DNA of 64,000 nt from Mayamaea pseudoterrestris (Eukaryota). Where the stretch lies: NCBI GenBank assembly GCA_027923505.1, contig BROI01000011.1, forward strand, positions 744,001 to 808,000. Reading direction: 5' to 3'. Within the stretch, counting starts at the first letter, position 1. Each line of letters begins with the position of its first letter. The notes beneath the pieces were generated by a model. That model ran no database searches. It saw nothing but the letters and a program-made list of their open reading frames with translations, and had not been told where the DNA came from. The translations under genes were made by a program, and so were the position numbers. Of this stretch, positions 15,954-47,810 are shown piece after piece.

Positions 15954-18900
15954 ATGCGAGTCCTAAGCTGTGCCTTTACTTTGGCGGGCTTCCTGGCGGC
16001 GACTGATGCGGCGCACGTCGGGAGAGTGCGCGGCTTGGTCGACGATTCCGAACCCGTGAGGAAGCAACGACGTCTCATGGTAACGAGTGTAGGTGGAGGT
16101 CATTGGGGAAACAATGGACGCGTCACAAGTGGGAGCAGTGGTACGGTGTCGAACCCAGTTGTAGATGAAGGCGATACGGGAGGAAACAGCGGTGGCAGTG
16201 GAGGAGGAGGAGGCGGCGGCACAACTGTAACGAACCCTCAAGGAGGCGGTAGCGGAGCAACACCAGTTGTTAGTCCTGTCAGAGACGGAGGCAGTGGAGG
16301 CAACGCTCCTCGAGCCGACAATGGAGGCAGTGGAGGTGCGCCCCGCGCCCAACCCAAGGCGAGCAAGAGCAAGGGCGCAAGCAAGCAGGGAAGATCCATC
16401 AAGGGAAGTCAGGGTGGTTTCCGTGGAGGAGACGACGACCAAACTGGAACGACCGCCATTTGCACTTGCGCCAGCTGTACGACAGATGTCCTCAACACAA
16501 TGGCGGGAGGGTATACTTGCGGAGAACGCATTGATTTTCAGCTAAAGAACAATCCAGCATTGTTTCCAACCATTGCCACTGCGTGCCACCAAGTCGGAGG
16601 GTTGGAATTTCCAACTGGTAAGAGAACACGATGCTTGCACATACAAGTGCCATGTTGTAGCTTGAAATTGACTGACGATGTCTTCTTTTGACCTCCAGAG
16701 TGCGGAGCATGCGACCCCTTCACTTGTGATGGCCGCACGGAACCTGGCACAACAGACACCCACTGGTAGGTCGGAATCGCTAACATAATTGATCTTTAGA
16801 AAGCTGTGTGTCTCACTTTTGAATCGCTTTCTCACTTACAGTAACTGCGAGACATGCACTGCCGATGCTTGGAACATTGATGCCGGCGGTACGTAGCTTC
16901 TCTCTCGCTATGATTGAGGCGCGCTATATAGTTTGAAAATCACTCATCGGAAAACGTTGCTTTCTCATGCGCAGGCTACACATGCGGAGCTCGTATCTCA
17001 TGGGCCATGATTGTTGATCAAGCACAAGAGCAGGATGCGTGCAAGCTTGTCACCGCCAGTTATCCACAGTGTAAAGCGTGTAATCCACAAACTTGCGCTG
17101 TGCCGTTGACTGCAGCCCCAAGCATCGGTGGACGTTCGGAACCGACGTCGCCACCAGTCACCGCTCCACCTGTCACGCCCCCACCTGTTCTTCCTGTTGT
17201 TCCACGGCCTGTTCCTGTTGTTCCACAGCCTGTGGCTCCCGTGACCATGCCTCCCGTGACGGCAGCCCCAGTCACAGCTGCTCCCGTTACCGCGGCTCCC
17301 GTCACTTCCTCCCCCACGTCAGGCCGATCGGAACCGACCACTCCAGCTCCCGTGACGGCGGCGCCAGTGACTCCAGCGCCTGTGACGGCGGCACCCGTCG
17401 CCCCGCCTCCCGCCGCAACGGAGACGACTCCAGCTCCGACTGCAGCCGCTAAATGTCCCGAGTACTGCGACTGCTGGAGCTGCGCGGCCGCATGGAACAA
17501 TGTTGCGAACGGATTGACTTGCGGTCAGCGAATTAACTGGTTGATTGGAACGTAAGTAATGAGAATCGATGTGTTGAAGTTACCAAAAGCAATTCTCGCA
17601 TTTTACTTACCTCGCCAACTCTTGAAAACAATTTGCCAGTAACATTGGCGAAGCGGCAGCTTGCCGTGCCGTCGGCGGGACGGAATTCGTAGACGCGTGT
17701 GGGGCCTGCAATCCTGACACTTGCGACGGACGCACTTCGCCAGTCACCGCACCAGTCGCGGTCCCAGCGTCAACACCAGCCCCAACCGCCGGTCGGTCGG
17801 AACCAGAGACAACTCCTGTTCCAACGTACCCACCTGTCAGTGGTACTCCAGCGCCAACGGCTGGTCGATCAGAACCGGTATCGACTCCTGGTCCAACGTA
17901 CCCCCCGGTTAGTGGTACTCCGGCGCCAACGGCTGGTCGATCGGAGCCAGAATCAACTCCTGCCCCGACCTGCCAACCTGTCAATAGTACACCGGCGCCA
18001 ACTGCTGGGCGATCGGAACCTGTTTACACGCATGCACCGACCCATTTACCTGTAAGCAGTACACCAGCTCCAACTGCCGGCCGATCGGAACCAGTGATAC
18101 CAGCTCCAACACATCAGCCTGTTCAAGGCACGCCAGCGCCGACCGCTGGTCGATCCGAATCGTCTGAAATATATTGCTTCCCACCTTCGGATGAGCGCAA
18201 GCGATTCACTGGCGTCTGGGACAATTACATGTTGGAAGCGAAGGACAGCGCAGAAGATGTTTGCGGACCCGCCAACAATAATTTTGAGGATGTTCTTGTC
18301 TCGGTTAACGACGAGCGCAATGAGTTGAGCTTGACCTATCAATACGCAAACGGACTGTGGTATGGAAGTGAAGTACGCATTCTTCAAGAATCTGGGCCAT
18401 ACTCTTACGGAACGTTTACATACAGCGTCAAGTCGATCAACGTCATTGAAAATGGAACCGTCGTAAGCAATGTCCTGCCAGTCGGCCTCGTCGTCGGCAT
18501 GTTCACATGGGATTCAACGTACAGTGGAAGTGATCCCGAGATTTACGAAGTCGACATTGAGATTGGTCAGTTTGGAAATTCATCCAACGCAGATGCCCAA
18601 TTCCTTCTCCAACCGCCTGAACAGCCTCACTATTACCGATTCTGGACGGGGTCGGAAGGTGTCTGCGAGCAATCACCCCAGACATACGAGTTTACTTGGT
18701 TGCCCACATCGGTGGCTTGGTATTCCAGTGCTGGCGGAGGCCAGAATCATCTTTACACAACACAAGAAGCTATATCAACGAGTCAGACGGATCGTGTGCA
18801 GTGCATGCCATCATCTATTGAAGCTCGTGCCAGCTTGTGGAGCATTAGGGGCGCAGAAGTCGCACCTGATGGCATGAAGGAGAACCAGCAAGTTCAGGTT

Positions 18901-19193: not shown

Positions 19194-20013
19194 TCACCCC
19201 TTTAACCAGCCCTTTCCTTTGGGTTTCATTGGTTGTATACCTTGAAGCTCGTTTCCTGCCAGTATCATCTGATCCGCTGCGAAAACCATTCGCTGACTAG
19301 AAAGTTCGGCATTTGCGTTTGCTGAATCAATCTTCTTGATAACAGTCGAAAGTAGCGTAAGATTCTTGCCGCCGACTGCAAGGTTTGCTCCCACAGTTGC
19401 TAATGGATCCTTTTGCATAATACATGCACCTGCCGCTTCGAGTGCGGTGCTTGTTGATTGCACGGGATCAATTGATAGTTCTGTATCAATGAGCCGAGCA
19501 ACAATGCAGCGTTAAGGTCAGATGTTACACAAAACATTCGTCAACCAAGGATACAGCAGACTGACAAACCTATAACATTTGCCAGCAAATCCATGTCATC
19601 TTCCTTTGCTTCTTGTACAGCAGCTTTAAGTTTCGAGCATGCTTCGTCGAGACATGTGGCGGCTTCTCGAAGTTCATCCGTAACAAGCTCGCTTCCAGTT
19701 TTGAATCGACAGGAGGCAGCTGCTTGCGCAATCGAGTCTCCTGCGTTTCGTATCTGAGCGCCTGCTGCTGATAGTCCACCTAAAAACGAATATTTAGAAA
19801 GCATGAGCTCGATTCAACTCGATAGTCATCTTTGTCATCCTTATTATCTTGCTTGCCTCCATACAAATTTAAATCCTGCGTGAGGTCAATCAAAAGTTCT
19901 CCGGCCCGGGCGAGCGCCTTGCCAGAATCCATCAATGGAACCGCTGCTGGCTTGAGTGAAAAACTACATATTCGGGTTATCAGTGGAAGCAACATTATCA
20001 AGCGTCGAAACAT
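19194..20013 (-). CDS. Hypothetical helical protein with signal-like leader, 3 exons (first intron GC-AG); copy 1
   Basis: Exons 20013-19857, 19779-19570, 19480-19194. Junctions give LNLYG-G-GLSAAGAQ and NVI-E-LSIDPVQST. Confidence 0.7.
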
Positions 20014-24887: not shown

Positions 24888-27800
24888 ATGAAGTCGAGCT
24901 ACATGCTCATCACCACGCTCATCTGCGTGGCCAATGCCTCAATAGATCCTTATTGGAGTTCATACACCCATCACAAAAGAGTTTTGCTTTTGGACCAGAA
25001 GATGGCGACGGCTGGAGCACGAGATCCCCCATCTAAGATGCGTAGTCGAGTCCAACTTTCAACGACATGCCCACGGCTATTGACGACTATGTTTCCACAG
25101 AGTGGCTTCTTGGAAAATGACGATGACAGTGTTTTAGAGCAACAAATCGCCACCCATGATGGGCAGACTGACAGAGATCCATCGGGTGGCAGTCGATGGG
25201 TGTCCGTGTGCTATGATACGACAACCAGTACGACACTTTTGAACGAGCCGCGGCGGAGTCAGTGTCACAGCAATCTGCTCTTCCGCTCATGTAGGCGCGG
25301 CGTCTGTCGGTTTCGACCAGCCTATCTTGTGAATAACTCACACCGCGACATCCAAAGTCTTGTAACATACGCAGCAAACAAAAAAGGTGATGATGAAATA
25401 CCTAATTATCGACACGTAAACCAAAAAGACAAGGGAACTGAAAATTTGAGCTCAGTTGAGGAAGGTGTGAGGAAGAGGGTGGACCTAAGAAGTTCAAAAG
25501 CTGGATATTGCTTCACTGTAAAAACATCAACAACCTCAATGTTATCTCTATATCCTGCAATTGAACCGCACACAAAAACACGTACTGTCAAGCGAAGATT
25601 ACAAGCGACAGAACCAAGTGCATTGCCAAGCAACCAGCCTTCCCTAGCACCGAGACCAAGCTCTATGCCAAGCAAGGTTCCAAGCGCTCAACCAGTGGAT
25701 GCTCCCAGTGCCTTGCCGAGCAAGGTTCCAAGCGCTCAACCAGTGATTGCTCCCAGTGCCTTGCCGAGCAAGGTTCCAAGCGCTCAACCAGTGGAAGCTC
25801 CCAGTGCCTTGCCGAGCAAGGTGCCAAGCACCCAACCTGCTGTGAATGCTCCCAGTGCCTTGCCGAGCAAGGTTCCAAGCGCTCAACCAGTGGATGCTCC
25901 CAGTGCCTTGCCGAGCAAGGTTCCAAGCGCTCAACCAGTGGATGCTCCCAGTGCCTTGCCGAGCAAGGTTCCAAGCGCTCAACCAGTGGATGCTCCCAGT
26001 GCCTTGCCGAGCAAGGTACCAAGCGCTCAACCAGTGGAAGCTCCCAGTGCCTTGCCGAGCAAGGTTCCAAGCGCTCAACCAGTGGATGCTCCCAGTGCCT
26101 TGCCGAGCAAGGTTCCAAGCGCTCAACCAGTGGATGCTCCCAGTGCCTTGCCGAGCAAGGTTCCAAGCGCTCAACCAGTGGATGCTCCCAGTGCCTTGCC
26201 GAGCAAGGTTCCAAGCGCTCAACCAGTGGATGCTCCCAGTGCCTTGCCGAGCAAGGTTCCAAGCGCTCAACCAGTGGATGCTCCCAGTGCCTTGCCAAGC
26301 AAGGTTCCAAGCGCTCAACCAGTGGATGCTCCCAGTGCCTTGCCGAGCAAGGTTCCAAGCGCTCAACCAGTGGATGCTCCCAGCGCCTTGCCGAGCAAGG
26401 TTCCAAGCGCTCAACCAGTGGATGCTCCCAGTGCCTTGCCGAGCAAGGTTCCAAGCGCTCAACCAGTGGATGCTCCCAGTGCCTTGCCGAGCAAGGTTCC
26501 AAGCGCTCAACCAGTGGATGCTCCCAGTGCCTTGCCGAGCAAGGTTCCAAGCGCTCAACCAGTGGATGCTCCCAGTGCCTTGCCGAGCAAGGTTCCAAGC
26601 GCTCAACCAGTGGATGCTCCCAGTGCCTTGCCGAGCAAGGTTCCAAGCGCTCAACCAGTGGATGCTCCCAGTGCCTTGCCGAGCAAGGTTCCAAGCGCTC
26701 AACCAGTGGATGCTCCCAGTGCCTTGCCGAGCAAGGTTCCAAGCGCTCAACCAGTGGATGCTCCCAGTGCCTTGCCGAGCAAGGTTCCAAGCGCTCAACC
26801 AGTGGATGCTCCCAGTGCCTTGCCGAGCAAGGTTCCAAGCGCTCAACCAGTGGATGCTCCCAGTGCCTTGCCGAGCAAGGTTCCAAGTGCTCAACCAGTG
26901 GATGCTCCCAGTGCCTTGCCGAGCAAGGTTCCAAGCGCTCAACCAGTGAATGCTCCCAGTGCCTTGCCGAGCAAGGTTCCAAGCGCTCAACCAGTGGATG
27001 CTCCCAGTGCCTTGCCGAGCAAGGTTCCAAGCGCTCAACCAGTGGATGCTCCCAGTGCCTTGCCGAGCAAGGTTCCAAGCGCTCAACCAGCTGTGAATGC
27101 TCCCAGTGCCTTGCCGAGCAAGGTTCCAAGCGCTCAACCAGCTGTGAATGCTCCCAGTGCCTTGCCGAGCAAGGTTCCAAGCGCTCAACCAGTGAATGCT
27201 CCCAGTGCCTTGCCGAGCAAGGTTCCAAGCGCTCAACCAGCTGTGAATGCTCCCAGTGCCTTGCCGAGCAAGGTTCCAAGCGCTCAACCAGTGAATGCTC
27301 CCAGTGCCTTGCCGAGCAAGGTGCCAAGCGCTCAACCAGTGAATGCTCCCAGTGCCTTGCCGAGCAAGGTGCCAAGCGCTCAACCAGTGAATGCTCCCAG
27401 TGCCTTGCCGAGCAAGGTGCCAAGCGCTCAACCAGTGGATGCTCCCAGTGCCTTGCCGAGCAAGGTTCCAAGCGCTCAACCAGTGAATGCTCCCAGTGCC
27501 TTGCCGAGCAAGGTGCCAAGCGCTCAACCAGTGAATGCTCCCAGTGCCTTGCCGAGCAAGGTGCCAAGTGCCCAACCAGCTGTGAATGCTCCCAGTGCCT
27601 TGCCGAGCAAGGTTCCAAGCGCTCAACCAGTGGATGCTCCCAGTGCCTTGCCGAGCAAGGTTCCAAGCGCTCAACCAGTGAATGCTCCCAGTGCCTTGCC
27701 GAGCAAGGTGCCAAGCGCCCAACCAGCTGTGAATGCTCCCAGTGCCTTGCCGAGCAAGGTGCCAAGCGCTCAACCAGCTGTGAATGCTCCCAGTGCCTTG

Positions 27801-28277
27801 CCGAGCAAGGTTCCAAGCGCTCAACCAGTGGATGCTCCCAGTGCCTTGCCGAGCAAGGTGCCAAGCGCCCAACCAGCTGTGAATGCTCCCAGTGCCTTGC
27901 CGAGCAAGGTGCCAAGCGCCCAACCAGCTGTGAATGCTCCCAGTGCCTTGCCGAGCAAGGTGCCAAGCGCTCAACCAGCTGTGAATGCTCCCAGTGCCTT
28001 GCCGAGCAAGGTTCCAAGCGCTCAACCAGCTGTGAATGCTCCCAGTGCCTTGCCGAGCAAGGTGCCAAGCGCTCAACCAGCTGTGAATGCTCCCAGTGCC
28101 TTGCCGAGCAAGGTGCCAAGCGCTCAACCAGTGAATGCTCCCAGTGCCTTGCCGAGCAAGGTGCCAAGCGCTCAACCAGCTGTGAATGCTCCCAGTGCCT
28201 TGCCGAGCAAGGTGCCAAGCGCTCAACCAGGAAGCGAAGGACAGCGCAGAAGATGTTTGCGGACCCGCCAACAATAA
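24888..28277 (+). pseudogene. 5' portion of the giant Pro/Ser-repeat protein, cut off at the duplication junction
   Basis: Same sequence as 34884 onward. The frame runs into GH16-gene sequence at 28231 out of frame and stops at 28277, so the KxxK region and TM are missing. Confidence 0.75.
25668..28230 (+). repeat. Coding minisatellite of 48/51-bp units (APSALPSKVPSAQPVD / ...QPAVN), ~52 units
   Basis: Unit gctcccagtgccttgccgagcaaggttccaagcgctcaaccagtggat repeated. Unit count estimated from array length. Confidence 0.97.
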
Positions 28278-29019
28278 TTTTGAGGATGTTCTTGTCTCGG
28301 TTAACGACGAGCGCAATGAGTTGAGCTTGACCTATCAATACGCAAACGGACTGTGGTATGGAAGTGAAGTACGCATTCTTCAAGAATCTGGGCCATACTC
28401 TTACGGAACGTTTACATACAGCGTCAAGTCGATCAACGTCATTGAAAATGGAACCGTCGTAAGCAATGTCCTGCCAGTCGGCCTCGTCGTCGGCATGTTC
28501 ACATGGGATTCAACGTACAGTGGAAGTGATCCCGAGATTTACGAAGTCGACATTGAGATTGGTCAGTTTGGAAATTCATCCAACGCAGATGCCCAATTCC
28601 TTCTCCAACCGCCTGAACAGCCTCACTATTACCGATTCTGGACGGGGTCGGAAGGTGTCTGCGAGCAATCACCCCAGACATACGAGTTTACTTGGTTGCC
28701 CACATCGGTGGCTTGGTATTCCAGTGCTGGCGGAGGCCAGAATCATCTTTACACAACACAAGAAGCTATATCAACGAGTCAGACGGATCGTGTGCAGTGC
28801 ATGCCATCATCTATTGAAGCTCGTGCCAGCTTGTGGAGCATTAGGGGCGCAGAAGTCGCACCTGATGGCATGAAGGAGAACCAGCAAGTTCAGGTTGTCT
28901 TTGACAAATTTACATTTACGCCTCTTGGTGTAACCGGAGTCGCAGATGGGGAAGCATGCTCGAAGAATTGCCAGTGTTTGAGTGGCTATTGTCAAAGTGG
29001 GGTCTGCGCAAGTCAGTGA
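28231..29019 (+). pseudogene. 5'-truncated duplicate of the GH16-like domain
   Basis: Same as 18235-19023. Lacks promoter, signal peptide and exons 1-4. Confidence 0.8.
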
Positions 29020-43879: not shown

Positions 43880-44860
43880 TCTGTAGTAGCACTCTTTCTT
43901 GCGCGCTCCAAAGCAGTTGCTATCGCATCGGACATCGTCGGGTCCAACCATTCTGGTTCATGCAGCCCCTTTTCTAGTAACAACGCTCGGTTAAACATCC
44001 CCTCTGGCTAGGCGCGATGCCGGACCCGACCTTGGCAAAACGCTTAGCGCCCGTAACGTTCATTCCCGACAAAAGCCCTAACGCCAGTCTGTCCTTCTTG
44101 AAAAAGCGCGAAGCATACGTACATTGCGTCATACGTAAAATCAGGTGTAATACTTTGTAACTGCAAGTAACGTGAGCTTGTCCAATACCCTTGGTAATGG
44201 AGCGCCCTTCATTGGCAAGCTCCCTTCATTGGCAAGCTCCCTTTTCTAAAATAGCGAGCAATGCATCTCCCTGTGGATTGATGTGAGCAATTTTGACATG
44301 AGAGTGATGCTAGCGAAATACAAGGCGCAGTGCCGCCTGTTCCATTTGTGCAACTAAACCCATCGGTCTTGAAAAGCTGCTGTGCTATATCCGCTGCCGA
44401 CATTTCGTAATGCGCTCTTCAGTTGTCGAGTTAAAATTCATCGAAATGATTGGCTCAGACGCCGTCTTCGATATGGTCCGCAAGTCTACCACTAGTTTTC
44501 ACGAAATTGTTGGCATTTGAATATGGCCATGGACCGACTTCCATAAGCGTTGCTTCAGCCTGGCGTAGAGAATCCTTCTATTCCGGTGACTGGTAGCTTG
44601 TTGCTTGGTCTGTGCTGACAACGACGCACTTGTAGCCTTTTAAATAGGCTATAGTTCCAGCCCAATCCCCGTATTATCGGCCGTACCATCTACAATCGTT
44701 GGACCAGGCTTGAGTAGTCCGTCTCGCACAAGTCCCTGATAAGGATTGACACTGCCGCCTATGTTCATGCGTTCGGCTTGCCGTAACTCTTGCAGCCACT
44801 TCTCTTACTCGGTCGCCACATGTAGATTCATGGCTTAATACCAACGGCATTGACAAGCTA
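43880..44860 (-). pseudogene. Decayed cysteine synthase (O-acetylserine sulfhydrylase, CysK-like) pseudogene
   Basis: Hand translation across frameshifts gives, in order: LVNAVG..SGCKSYGK, ERMNIGGSV, GLLKPGPTIVDGTADNTGIGL, GYKCVVV, QSPE*KDSLRQA, PYSNANNFVKTSGRLA, GV*ANHFD, RAHYE, DGFSCTNGTGGT, EGRSITKGIGQAHVT, LALGLLSGMNVTGA, MFNRALLLEKGL..PEWL. Confidence 0.85.
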
Positions 44861-45116
44861 TCGTAAACAGGGGCAACAGCATGAGTGTCTTCGACATGGC
44901 TCCATAAACCGTTCATGCATCAGCATGCATCGGCGGATCCGAGGCGTCGAACAAGCGATGCAGTTGCAAGTTTCGTACCGGTAAAAATTAAAAGATTCAA
45001 ATCGTCTTAGCGTTACTCAGTCTGGCGCACTTTTGGCTTGGATTTCTCGCGCTCGCAATGGCCAAGGGCTGTGGCTGCTCCCTGCTGCCGTAGACGACAG
45101 CTTCATACTCCTCACC

Positions 45117-46026
45117 ATGCTGCTCTGGATACCTCAGAATACGTGCCAGCATCACAATGGTGACGACGATGAAAAGTCGACCAAAGTGCAGCGACAAGCT
45201 CGAGTCCGCACCATTCGAACGACGCTCGCCTGCTTTGGTGCCTCCGTCATGGTTTTCTTGGTCATGATTCTGCAGCTCCGTCTGTACAAGTCGGAGAATG
45301 GAGCATATGAGCCAAACTTGCGTCGGAGGCGACTCCCATACAATAGCATTTATCGACTCTCAGTCATGGATGCGCAAGGACAAAGTACATCGTTGGAACG
45401 CTTTGCCGGCATGGTGACACTGGTGGTCAACGCTGCTTGCTTATGAGGCAAGACGGACGTGAGCTTTACGCAGTTACAGCAACTGCAGGATCAATATGCA
45501 AATGATGGGTTTTCAGTCTTGGCGTTTCCTACTAATGATTATCAACAAGAGCTTGCAAGCAATGCAGAAGTTGCTGCCTTTGTCAAGGAGCATTATCCAG
45601 GTTCGTCGTTATGCACACGTTATGCTCCTACGACCAAAAAATACTTGAGGATCCATTCTCACCTTTCTTTTGCTCGCTCATAACTTCATAGAAACGACAT
45701 TTCCGATCTTTGGACTTGGCCCTCTTTCCAGGAATCCAGTCTACTCGCTGCTTAGCAAGCAATTAGACTTGCCAGAAGCAGAATCTCGCGTCCGTCACAA
45801 CTTTTACAAGTATTTGGTCGACAGGAATGGTGTTGGTAAGTGTATTGATAATTGTATAGCGCAATGTTTTTGATATGTATGGAGAAGTGTTTGCGTCTCT
45901 CATCTACTCTACATCTGCTTCACCTTCACGCTCGCAGCCGTCAAACTTTACAACAAAAAGCAAGATCCCCTGTCCATCAAGGGTGCTATTGAAAAACTTT
46001 TAAAGCAAACAGTTGCTGCCTTATAG
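45117..46026 (+). CDS. GPX: Selenocysteine-containing glutathione peroxidase with N-terminal membrane anchor, 3 exons
   Basis: Exons 45117-45600, 45692-45835, 45938-46026. In-frame TGA at 45444-45446 sits in VTLVVNAACL-U-GKT (canonical NVASxUGxT). Also GFSVLAFPTNDYQQE, FPIF, HNFYKYLVDRNG and DPLSIKGAIEKLL. Confidence 0.9.
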
Positions 46027-46059
46027 ACTGCAACGAATAGGTTTTCTTTCCGACTAAAA

Positions 46060-46151
46060 GCCAGATGGCCATTCAAGAATGACAGTTTCAGAATCGGCTA
46101 CGTCAATATTCGAATGGTAGTCGTTTTGGAGCTTGAAATATCGGGTCGGCC
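46060..46151 (+). promoter_or_regulatory. Candidate SECIS element in the GPx 3' UTR
   Basis: AUGA at 46079-46082. AGUUUCAG (46084-91) pairs with UUGGAGCU (46126-33). AA at 46092-93. Upper stem CGGCUAC/GUAGUCG. 3' UGAA at 46134-37 completes the G.A/A.G quartet. Confidence 0.7.
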
Positions 46152-46193
46152 GCATTAACAAACAATGTTATATTAAATTACACACCTTTGCCA

Positions 46194-46886
46194 TTACTCC
46201 TTGCCGTACGCCAGCGTTAGCTTGTCGTTTGCCGTCAACTGAAAGCCTTGCAAGGCTTCCAGCGCTACAGTCGCACTCGCTGACGAATCAAACTCAACAA
46301 ACGCCATGCCTTCGCGCGGCATGCGCACCTCTTGAAATCCCTGGTATTGTCGGAAAAGCATGCTGAGCATGAGTTGGTTGCATTCGGTTGGAAGATCCGT
46401 CGCCAAGAGGTACTTGGAGGGCGGAGCAGCGGGCGACGACGGATCGGCTGCTGCTGCTGCTGTCGCTGATTCAGCTTCATTTGCATGCGATTCTTCGTCT
46501 TGCTTTAGCTTCTTGGCCTTTGGGGCGGCGTCGTTATCGTCGTCGGAGCCATCGTCTTGAGCTGCACCCGACGGCGATGCAGCAACATTTTTCTTGGCAG
46601 CCTTTTGGTTCGACAAATGCTTCGTCTTATCTCTGGCATACTCAATGACCATGTCCTTGTCAAAGAAATTGAATCCTTGTTCGGCTTGCAGACAGGCTGT
46701 TGCTGCTTGTACGGAATCCATCACCACCCAAGCCTGCCCGCGCAAGCCGTCGCGCCGCAAAACGAGCACCTCGAGAACCTTGCCATGACGCGTACACAAT
46801 GAGTAGAGTGCGCGCCGCAGTAGCGGTTTCTTGATCTTCCAGTCGATATTCTTGAAGTAAAGGGTATTGTTCGGTTCATTTATCAT
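46194..46886 (-). CDS. U1A / U2B'' spliceosomal snRNP protein (two RRMs)
   Basis: EPNNTLYFKNID.KIKK..LRRALYSL, LRGQAWVV, QGFNFFDKDMVIEYAR. Second RRM PPSKYLLATDLP..LSMLFRQYQGF..AFVEF. Confidence 0.92.
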   Translation of the reverse strand: MINEPNNTLYFKNIDWKIKKPLLRRALYSLCTRHGKVLEVLVLRRDGLRGQAWVVMDSVQAATACLQAEQGFNFFDKDMVIEYARDKTKHLSNQKAAKKNVAASPSGAAQDDGSDDDNDAAPKAKKLKQDEESHANEAESATAAAAADPSSPAAPPSKYLLATDLPTECNQLMLSMLFRQYQGFQEVRMPREGMAFVEFDSSASATVALEALQGFQLTANDKLTLAYGKE

Positions 46887-47129
46887 AATGGAATCTGGTG
46901 TTCAATAAGTCAGAAAGTAGATTGATGCAGTGAAGTTGTGGCGTTCATCGTGTGGCTAGAACGTGTGTCTCATCGGTTCTTGGTGTGACAGCGCCGCGCT
47001 GGCGCGCCTTTTTTGCTCCACCATGAATGGTTCGTTACTTTCGCTGCTTTCCACGCGCATTTGAATGGTAAAATCAGCAGCCTCTGGTCCAAATTAGCAA
47101 TCTACCGTCACATCCAATCACTTGTGTGT

Positions 47130-47810
47130 ATGGCTATCGCAGAATTAGCTGGAGGAGATGCCATGGACCTGGATGATGTTGATGTTGCACCATCATCCTT
47201 CTTGAATCAATCACAGTCGCATCTGTCCACCATGCAGCAACAAGACGTTGATCGCGTCTTTGAACAACTGTTTGGCTACAAGTGGGGAACACAGTTCGAT
47301 CTCGGAGTACCTGAAACGCGGCAAGAGATCCTGCTGTGTCGAATGCTAGGCAAGCGCGCTGCGGCGACGGTTCTCCACACAAAGAGCAAAAGCAAACGTG
47401 TGAAACGAATTTCTGCAGCTTCTGAAAAACCTTCGAGTCCGATAGTGAGACCTCCGCTAGAAGAGACTTTACTTTTGCCAAGAGCAGCAACTGGTCCAAC
47501 AGCTTTGAATAGAATTGAACCCGTTGAAATCGCAGCAATTGCAGCGGCGCCAATAGTGGCAACGAGCGGAAATGTCGACAGCGTTCTCAAGGCGCTTGAG
47601 GAAGGCCAAGGCACGTCTACTATCGCAAAAACGAGCGCTGATTGGGAAGTATTCAAGGACCAGACTGGTTTGGGCGACAAACTTGAAGAAAAAGCTGAAG
47701 GAAAGGACGCCTTTCTCAATCGACAAGCATTTTTGACGCGTGTCGATCATCGAACGTTTGAACTTGAGCGTAAGGATCGAGACAAGGAGCGAACGAAGCG
47801 AGGCACATGA
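47130..47810 (+). CDS. BCNT-C domain protein (CFDP1/Swc5-like)
   Basis: C-terminus STIAKTSADWEVFKDQTGLGDKLE...DAFLNRQAFLTRVDHRTFELER is the BCNT-C signature. Confidence 0.88.
   Translation: MAIAELAGGDAMDLDDVDVAPSSFLNQSQSHLSTMQQQDVDRVFEQLFGYKWGTQFDLGVPETRQEILLCRMLGKRAAATVLHTKSKSKRVKRISAASEKPSSPIVRPPLEETLLLPRAATGPTALNRIEPVEIAAIAAAPIVATSGNVDSVLKALEEGQGTSTIAKTSADWEVFKDQTGLGDKLEEKAEGKDAFLNRQAFLTRVDHRTFELERKDRDKERTKRGT

Follow-up and report, generated by a model that had tools for sequence, protein, structure and literature searches.

The 64,000-nucleotide stretch of Mayamaea pseudoterrestris DNA analyzed here (hereafter the window: assembly GCA_027923505.1, contig BROI01000011.1, positions 744,001 to 808,000 of the forward strand; all coordinates below count from its first letter) contains at 45117–46026, on the plus strand, what sequence comparison indicates is very probably a functional nuclear gene for a single-pass membrane glutathione peroxidase (GPx) with selenocysteine (Sec) in its active site, codon UGA110 being decoded by means of a Sec insertion sequence (SECIS) element. 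The in-frame TGA at this codon is neither an error nor the mark of a pseudogene. The protein is an ordinary kind of algal selenoprotein, and its unusual active-site layout is common to a whole diatom clade.

A TGA codon at the peroxidatic position of a GPx gene

Two stop-to-stop open reading frames (ORFs), 44985–45446 and 45447–45683, lie in one frame and meet at the TGA at 45444–45446, after which the sequence continues GGC AAG ACG GAC. With TGA translated as U, 45117–45599 reads MLLWIPQ...TLACFGASVMVFLVMILQL...VVNAACL-U-GKTDVSFTQLQQLQDQYANDGFSVLAFPTNDYQQELASNAEVAAFVKEHYP, with ...VVNAACL-U-GKTDVSF... as the active site. The complete gene extends over three exons from an ATG at 45117 to a TAG stop at 46024–46026, giving a coding sequence (CDS) of 717 nt with 238 codons and as many residues. 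Exon 1 (45117–45600) holds residues 1–161 and the first base of codon 162, comprising the N terminus, the membrane anchor and the active site up to ...KEHYP. Intron 1 (45601–45691, 91 nt, GT..AG, phase 1) was placed where frame and homology resume (KEHYP-ETTFPIF). Exon 2 (45692–45835) includes the catalytic pair His197-Asn198, with His197 encoded by CAC at 45796–45798, and is followed by intron 2 (45836–45937, 102 nt, GTAAGT..AG, phase 1) and exon 3 (45938–46026), which ends at the TAG and whose C-terminal ...AVKLYNKKQDPLSIKGAIEKLL is homologous to relatives. The two introns thus join ...KEHYP to ETTFPIFGLGPLSRNPVY...RVRHNFYKYLVDRNGV and next to AVKLYNKKQDPLSIKGAIEKLLKQTVAAL, up to the TAG. 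An initial annotation of the sequence had given exactly this CDS span from start to stop codon, leaving implicit the two introns that are needed.

The predicted protein matches Pfam PF00255 (GSHPx) across the TGA, with residues 78–160 aligned to profile positions 1–83 of 108 at 72.7 bits (cut-off 27; E 2.3e-20). The remainder of the GPx domain is encoded by exons 2 and 3 and aligns with relatives. Compared to solved chains, exon 1 scored best with 2v1m (E 3e-17), followed by GPx4 (4e-15), GPx8 (3e-14) and GPx7 (1e-13); 2v1m and 2wgr we take to be Schistosoma mansoni GPx. A family member, P0048, reached E 1e-24 against solved GPx chains. The motif N-x-A-x-x-(U/C)-G-x-T is present, and in the alignment its U/C site falls opposite the catalytic Cys/Ser of 2v1m/2wgr and the catalytic residue of GPx4. 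ORF layout, Pfam match and solved chains therefore agree with the initial annotation in placing the TGA at the peroxidatic position of NAACL-U-GKT, and the assignment of codon 110 as Sec draws on this GPx alignment together with contigs and relatives.

Contigs of four public runs were compared to 44800–46500, with 31 letters on each side as the criterion for bridging. The TGA is crossed unchanged by two of them, X2 record 10 (45128–45590) and X3 record 19 (45087–45793), both exceeding 31 letters on each side. Over 707 nt the X3 contig shows 18 differences, being derived from a divergent strain or allele; relative to the window CDS, 15 codons differ, of which nine are synonymous and six are conservative replacements, and one change, A106T, yields NTACL, as in relatives. 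Contigs of two runs, one of them from a divergent allele, thus keep TGA at the site, where a sequencing error should have left TGC or TGT. Regarding the gene structure, joints exactly at intron 2 occur in X2 and X4 (two of the four runs), where the shorter side measures 118 and 132 letters, respectively. Intron 1 is skipped by one X2 contig (one of the four runs), but with 28 letters on its shorter side this joint falls below the 31-letter rule and supports the intron weakly.

Conservation of the site in pennate diatoms

To survey relatives, metagenome contigs were scanned with a 22-member family alignment, which returned 80 loci; the fetch patterns, VN[TV]AC[KL][WC]GK and VLAFP[TS][NT]D[FY], bias what is returned. 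Among the 32 related loci of eukaryote type, 31 carry TGA at the site, one (L010) carries TGC and none TGG, although several of these loci are near-identical copies and therefore not 32 independent observations. Two residues upstream of the site (position −2), 29 of the 31 TGA loci encode Cys and two encode Ser. The other 48 loci encode bacterial-type S-x-C proteins with TGC or TGT, and both the loci and the frequency of NDF are query-biased. Cys forms of the family were also found as database proteins (P0012, P0029, P0047, P0048 and P0050). Across 22 aligned sequences, G111, K112, T113, L123, G131, F132, L135, A136, F137, P138, D141, Q144 and E145 are invariant, and conservation is equally strong on the two sides of the site. 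A column of U or C with conservation on both sides, as expected for a genuine Sec codon in the initial annotation, is therefore what these relatives display.

A FastTree tree was computed from 120 domain sequences, which came from the window, from database proteins and from the ORFs of the loci; its midpoint root serves display purposes alone. A branch with local support 97 separates 78 of these sequences, the window among them, from the rest. The 78 contain a group of 18 with CxU and WNF (support 100) and a group of 59 that includes the window (support 89). In the latter, the position of the canonical Trp is mostly His, also W, Q, K or G, and Sec changed to Cys several times with the Cys at −2 retained. 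All Sec-to-Cys converts seen keep this Cys, namely seven rows labeled CxC_D_H, P0061 and locus L010; in tree labels, ‘_D_’ denotes only an Asp replacing the non-tetrad Q of NQF. All named members of the clade are pennate diatoms. The odd features pointed out in the initial annotation are thus all present, but they characterize a clade of about 78 sequences and not just this gene, and the His varies within the clade. One further protein, P0204 (named Cylindrotheca, MMETSP by source), has neither Sec nor Cys in its active site, ...VNVALQMRQDQGHYEEL...; the copy is degenerate, or else its transcript model is frameshifted.

A SECIS-type element in the 3′ untranslated region

A SECIS-type element was located at 46075–46141 (+) in the 3′ untranslated region (UTR), 49 nt past the stop, by folding and by a covariance model, R1. 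From 5′ to 3′, its predicted fold consists of an AUGA core (46079–46082) followed by C 46083, the first strand of an 8-bp helix II (46084–46091, paired with 46126–46133), an unpaired AA (46092–46093), a 7-bp upper stem with a 15-nt loop (46095–46101/46117–46123) and, after helix II closes, U-GA-A (46134–46137). The 3′ UTRs of relatives share the frame AUGA(C)-AG...CU-N-GA-(A/U), 45–110 nt after their stops.

The covariance model was built from relatives only. Under strict scan settings, 13 of the 22 relatives’ loci whose ORF is complete showed a clear AUGA..GA hairpin, and L001 and L002 joined them on less strict inspection. The alignment, A2, comprises 17 elements from 14 loci, with the window excluded. 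Not included were L009 (a copy of L008), L013 (33-nt hairpin, too short), L021 (83-nt UTR only), L003, L004 and L006 (a different, GUGAAUGA-type candidate) and L005 and L030 (no clear candidate). RNAalifold predicted helix I, an internal loop with AUGA and GA, and helix II, with compensatory changes in 11 of the 12 pairs. Pairing held in 87.3% of cells, compared to 68.3% in shuffled alignments (0 of 500 reached the observed value) and at most 47.1% with slid partners, and the covariation score was 0.624 versus at most 0.228. While the helix II pairs are partly due to how the scan was constructed, helix I played no part in picking candidates and shows double-sided changes in all seven pairs. 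Applied to both strands of the window with filters off and a rough E calibration, R1 gave a single good match, 46075–46141 (+), at 24.9 bits (E 0.0015), the best of four; the next three scored 11.0–11.1 bits (E 3.3–3.5).

Several points count against decoding of the TGA as Sec. Rfam searches of 44000–47500 and of 46020–46260, at E up to 10, returned no SECIS family. The same library was also blank, up to E 10, for 20 relatives’ loci with the conserved TGA, so this negative says little about the window, the library being blind to the lineage. As the Rfam SECIS families missed every element of this family, lineage-specific models are needed for diatom selenoproteins, and the one built here found the element cleanly. 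The R1 match is local (model positions 9–69) and leaves helix I outside; in the window only a weak helix I of 4 bp can be drawn (46067–46070/46144–46147). The 64-kb window contains no tRNA gene; diatoms in general possess the Sec machinery, according to the available part of a published survey (PMC2375036). Lastly, the kind of the four sequencing runs is unrecorded, so that an RNA origin of the contigs spanning the TGA is not established.

Three relatives’ transcripts carry tandem SECIS-type hairpins in one 3′ UTR despite an ORF with a single TGA: L015 (939–1023 and 1097–1171), L016 (924–1008 and 1085–1158) and L025 (1043–1122 and 1247–1307).

Catalytic residues and possible reaction mechanism

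Apart from the peroxidatic residue, the GPx tetrad is partly altered. Its Gln is kept as Q144, aligned to the q of ‘gkqe’/‘ggqe’ in solved chains; that the tetrad Gln is the Q of G-x-Q-E is fixed by the position of GPx7 Gln92 relative to Cys86, as given in the available part of a preprint (10.1101/2020.03.26.010116). Asp141 as a substitute for this Gln was rejected, as it replaces the non-tetrad Q of NQF. The tetrad Asn is likewise kept (Asn198), while the Trp is His197, so the WNF motif is absent. A solved-structure search using exon 2 alone (47 residues) gave no useful match and, therefore, the Trp/His column was checked with full-length P0048, in which ‘vqhnfykflvd’ lies opposite ‘iqwnfakflvn’ of solved GPx. 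This alignment bears out the WNF-to-HNF exchange noted initially. A second proposed exchange was also recovered: the counterpart of FPCNQF is FPTNDY (residues 137–142), in which the usual Cys is gone. Between Y142 and Q144, the protein has one residue fewer than canonical GPx. A single residue is likewise found there in 69 of the 70 rows with Cys at −2, compared to two residues in 34 of the 49 Ser rows.

Cysteines besides Sec110 are limited to Cys10, Cys39 (within the membrane helix) and Cys108 (TGC, 45438–45440), which is the sole other Cys of the catalytic domain and nearly invariant in the 22-sequence alignment. The region containing the resolving Cys of the poplar and yeast enzymes has no Cys here. 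Presence of Cys108 two residues before Sec was correctly read in the initial annotation, but its description as unusual holds only in part, since 2v1m/2wgr reads ...nvack-c/s-gatd.

These features allow a catalytic cycle to be proposed. During translation, UGA110 would be read as Sec, directed by the SECIS kink-turn hairpin about 50 nt into the 3′ UTR. Held by Gln144, Asn198 and, in place of Trp, His197, Sec110 would reduce H2O2 or an organic hydroperoxide, as suggested by the chemistry of the family, and thereby become a selenenic acid. Both canonical resolving Cys are missing, that of FPCNQF as well as the Cys block of the plant and yeast enzymes, and Cys108 is the only other, nearly invariant Cys of the domain. 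The selenenic acid would therefore be attacked by Cys108, giving a local C-x-U selenenylsulfide that would in turn be reduced by a partner with a thioredoxin fold, of the PDI or thioredoxin (Trx) type, or by glutathione. We consider a resolving role of Cys108 with such a selenenylsulfide plausible, with a likelihood somewhat below one half.

An alternative with close to an even chance of being correct is that the protein is a real Sec-GPx in which Cys108 is non-resolving, with a structural or tuning function, and which operates in a one-Sec mode like GPx4 or GPx7; glutathione or a PDI/Trx partner would in this case attack the selenenic acid directly. Two observations favor it and at the same time weigh against the Cys108 step: 2v1m/2wgr features Cys at −2 in a GPx with otherwise canonical motifs (FPCNQF), and in nine rows of the clade Sec is accompanied by Ser at −2. 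In addition, GPx7 can oxidize PDI by a one-Cys route, according to the part of the above preprint that is available (10.1101/2020.03.26.010116). Arguing for a dedicated function of Cys108, on the other hand, are the near-invariance of Cys at −2 and its retention when Sec is replaced by Cys, as well as the empty canonical resolving positions: 69 of the 70 rows with Cys at −2 lack the FPCNQF-type resolving Cys. This joint occurrence of Cys at −2 and a missing FPC Cys arises from shared ancestry, however, and an independent-pairs test, which likewise does not help the Cys108 step, had four pairs and no power.

More broadly, the pennate-diatom clade might consist of type II membrane-anchored Sec-GPx that act as secretory-pathway thiol oxidases or peroxidases, using a C-x-U cycle to pass oxidation from H2O2 to PDI-type partners; we regard this as rather unlikely. 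Similarly doubtful is the evolutionary course that goes with it, in which the clade would have lost the two canonical resolving Cys as well as the tetrad Trp and gained the Cys at −2. If true, this would be a Sec-dependent counterpart of the GPx7/8–PDI route that evolved independently. Should C-x-U be a redox couple, the clade would offer a natural test of what selenium contributes to a GPx7/8-like membrane peroxidase and would connect the supply of selenium with oxidative folding, or with the handling of peroxide at the cell surface, in diatoms, among them a freshwater species employed in ecotoxicology.

Predicted membrane anchor and topology

Upstream of the GPx domain, residues 36–54 (TLACFGASVMVFLVMILQL; codons at 45222–45278, +) form the top-scoring 19-residue hydropathy window, with a mean Kyte–Doolittle (KD) value of 2.23, in line with the signal-anchor transmembrane helix recognized in the initial annotation. 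The helix is preceded by a conserved N terminus, MLLWxP...D(D/E)EK..K..R (MLLWIP...DDDEKSTK in the window), in which E19, K20 and K23 are nearly invariant. A basic linker of about 20 residues, with RRRR at residues 69–72, connects it to the GPx domain. A similar hydrophobic segment (KD ≥1.8) is present in 27 of 31 related loci.

Hydropathy and flanking charge suggest a type II topology resembling that of GPx8, with a short cytosolic N terminus and a lumenal or extracellular GPx domain. The 15 residues flanking the helix carry a charge of +5 on the N-terminal and +1 on the C-terminal side. In 31 relatives, the N-terminal flank is more positive in 22, equal in five and less positive in three, with L035, a partial ORF, unscored; a proportion of only 22 in 31 is a point against the type II assignment. 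The opposite orientation, in which the N terminus is outside and the catalytic domain acts in the cytosol as a membrane-tethered lipid-hydroperoxide reductase, is improbable in our assessment. It would fit the basic character of both flanks, including RRRR, and the eight of 31 relatives in which the N-terminal flank is not more positive, but is at odds with the charge difference in the window and in the majority of relatives. Furthermore, many relatives begin with M-x-RR or MRR, resembling the di-arginine motif, an endoplasmic reticulum signal of type II proteins.

Among database proteins P0011–P0029 and loci L001–L031, N and C termini pair in two sorting-like flavors. One combines an N-terminal MLLWxP with a C terminus like ...KQPIVSYS (the window protein ends in ...KQTVAAL), and the other combines M(x)RR or MRRxxK with ...(K/R)(L/Y)VT(H/E/Q) or ...VPQT(H/Y).

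Public gene models of the family

The top database protein for the gene is P0003, ‘hypothetical protein MPSEU_000606900 [Mayamaea pseudoterrestris]’, which equals our three-exon model minus VTLVVNAACLUGKTDVSFTQLQQLQ. This model was deposited with an additional in-frame intron of 75 nt at 45414–45488, which we judge to be exon: it is an invention of the gene caller to pass the TGA, and it leaves the public protein without its whole active site. According to the available text of the Mayamaea genome paper (PMC9724779), models were generated by funannotate, and ‘selen’ does not occur in that text.

Mishandling by gene callers, as anticipated in the initial annotation, extends to relatives. Models from Seminavis robusta (P0215) and Nitzschia inconspicua (P0258) omit the same segment, each differently, which suggests a gene-caller artefact; the Amphora coffeaeformis entry P0040 ends at ...NTACH. 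Many metagenome proteins end at ...AC(L/K) or begin after the site. In public metagenome and transcriptome protein sets, other members of the family (P0011, P0013–P0028 and more) read ACKWGKT, with Trp in place of the Sec, although the DNA carries TGA; L003, the DNA that corresponds to P0024, is one example. Apparently, a code in which TGA is Trp was used to translate these contigs, so that the selenoproteins pass for Trp proteins. The annotation error thus affects at least three other pennate diatoms (Seminavis, Nitzschia and Amphora), whose models skip or stop at the same codon. As a consequence of such misannotation, comparative and expression studies see a ‘hypothetical protein’ or a dead enzyme instead of a selenoenzyme.

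That the public model is nevertheless correct, with the 75-nt intron removing the TGA to yield a Sec-less product, is very unlikely: apart from its use in the deposited P0003, its GT..AG ends and its preserved frame, such an intron would delete a β-strand and the start of a helix with the whole active site, conserved in every relative, while relatives retain the segment with its TGA, Seminavis and Nitzschia models skip it in differing ways, and the same runs of unrecorded kind, checked for an intron of this type, contain no joint at 45414–45488 in any of the four, the two contigs X2 record 10 and X3 record 19 continuing straight through. An equally remote explanation, namely a pseudogene, an assembly error or a UGA that acts as terminator to give a 109-residue membrane stub, could draw on the lack of an Rfam SECIS hit and the many database proteins stopping at the site, but conflicts with frame, splice sites and invariant residues that persist for 128 codons past the TGA, with TGA in 31 of 32 loci, alternating with Cys codons, with a SECIS-type element matched by a model made without the window and with the same TGA in a divergent allele.

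Relation to known peroxidases and selenoproteins

Diatoms contain 20–44 selenoprotein genes, and algal GPX are mostly of the Sec form, as reported in the available parts of Lobanov et al. 2007 (PMC2375036) and Jiang et al. 2020 (PMC7539508). The Sec-GPx in these accounts have the same GPx domain, a UGA-encoded Sec at the peroxidatic site and a SECIS in the 3′ UTR, whereas no membrane anchor, Cys at −2 or changed Trp is described in those parts (PMC2375036, PMC7539508). Members of the present clade may be catalogued in the supplementary lists of the algal selenoproteome papers.

Mammalian GPx8 has, by the partial descriptions available, a short cytosolic N terminus and a single transmembrane helix, beyond which the GPx domain lies on the far side of the membrane, an arrangement that is predicted for the Mayamaea protein. 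It is likewise of the monomer type with a non-canonical tetrad (solved chains 3kij/3cyn, and 2p31 for its soluble sister GPx7). In the same sources, however, GPx8 uses a peroxidatic Cys, keeps the FPCNQF resolving Cys and the Trp, and has Ser in place of Gln; for GPx7/8, the resolving Cys is identified as the FPCNQF Cys in the available part of the preprint (10.1101/2020.03.26.010116). The Mayamaea protein instead has Sec110, FPTNDY, a retained Gln and His for Trp, and the Cys residues characteristic of GPx8 are absent. Since sequence scores show no special affinity to GPx8, the GPx8-like anchor is probably convergent. The best solved matches, 2v1m/2wgr and GPx4, share the ...GxT after the site, and 2v1m also the Cys at −2 (...nvack-c-gatd). 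Unlike the Mayamaea protein, 2v1m and GPx4 are soluble enzymes in which FPCNQF and WNF are retained and one extra residue stands between F and QE.

A Cys-x-Sec arrangement in a thioredoxin-like fold also occurs in SELENOF (Sep15), a secretory-pathway protein thought to undergo a selenenylsulfide cycle, according to the available parts of two reports (PMC9304195, PMC7539508). SELENOF belongs to another family, with CXU at the position of a CxxC motif, while in the Mayamaea protein Sec occupies the GPx peroxidatic position, with the Cys upstream of it in the strand. The resemblance is confined to the proposed chemistry. As diatom Sec-GPx, anchored GPx8 and the CXU of SELENOF were already known, each single feature has precedent. 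What appears new is that a conserved diatom clade combines a signal anchor and Sec with Cys at −2, with His instead of the tetrad Trp and with the lack of any canonical resolving Cys. None of the paper texts searched describes this clade or combination of features, with supplementary sequence lists outside that search.

Neighboring sequence features

Downstream, a converging gene on the minus strand (46197–46901, RRM_1 domain, E 2.1e-17) ends at 46194–46196. With just 53 nt between this point and the end of the SECIS match, the 3′ UTRs of both genes must be very short or overlapping. Elsewhere in the window, a tandem array with a 48-nt period occupies 25551–28200 and contains 34 copies of a 300-nt reference, mostly 98–99% alike. 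A direct repeat of 300 nt (18234–18533 and 28230–28529) shows 100% identity at a spacing of 9,996 nt, and this spacing recurs between two weak, identical model matches at 19549 and 29545. The array, the direct repeat and the paired weak matches jointly suggest a duplication of about 10 kb.

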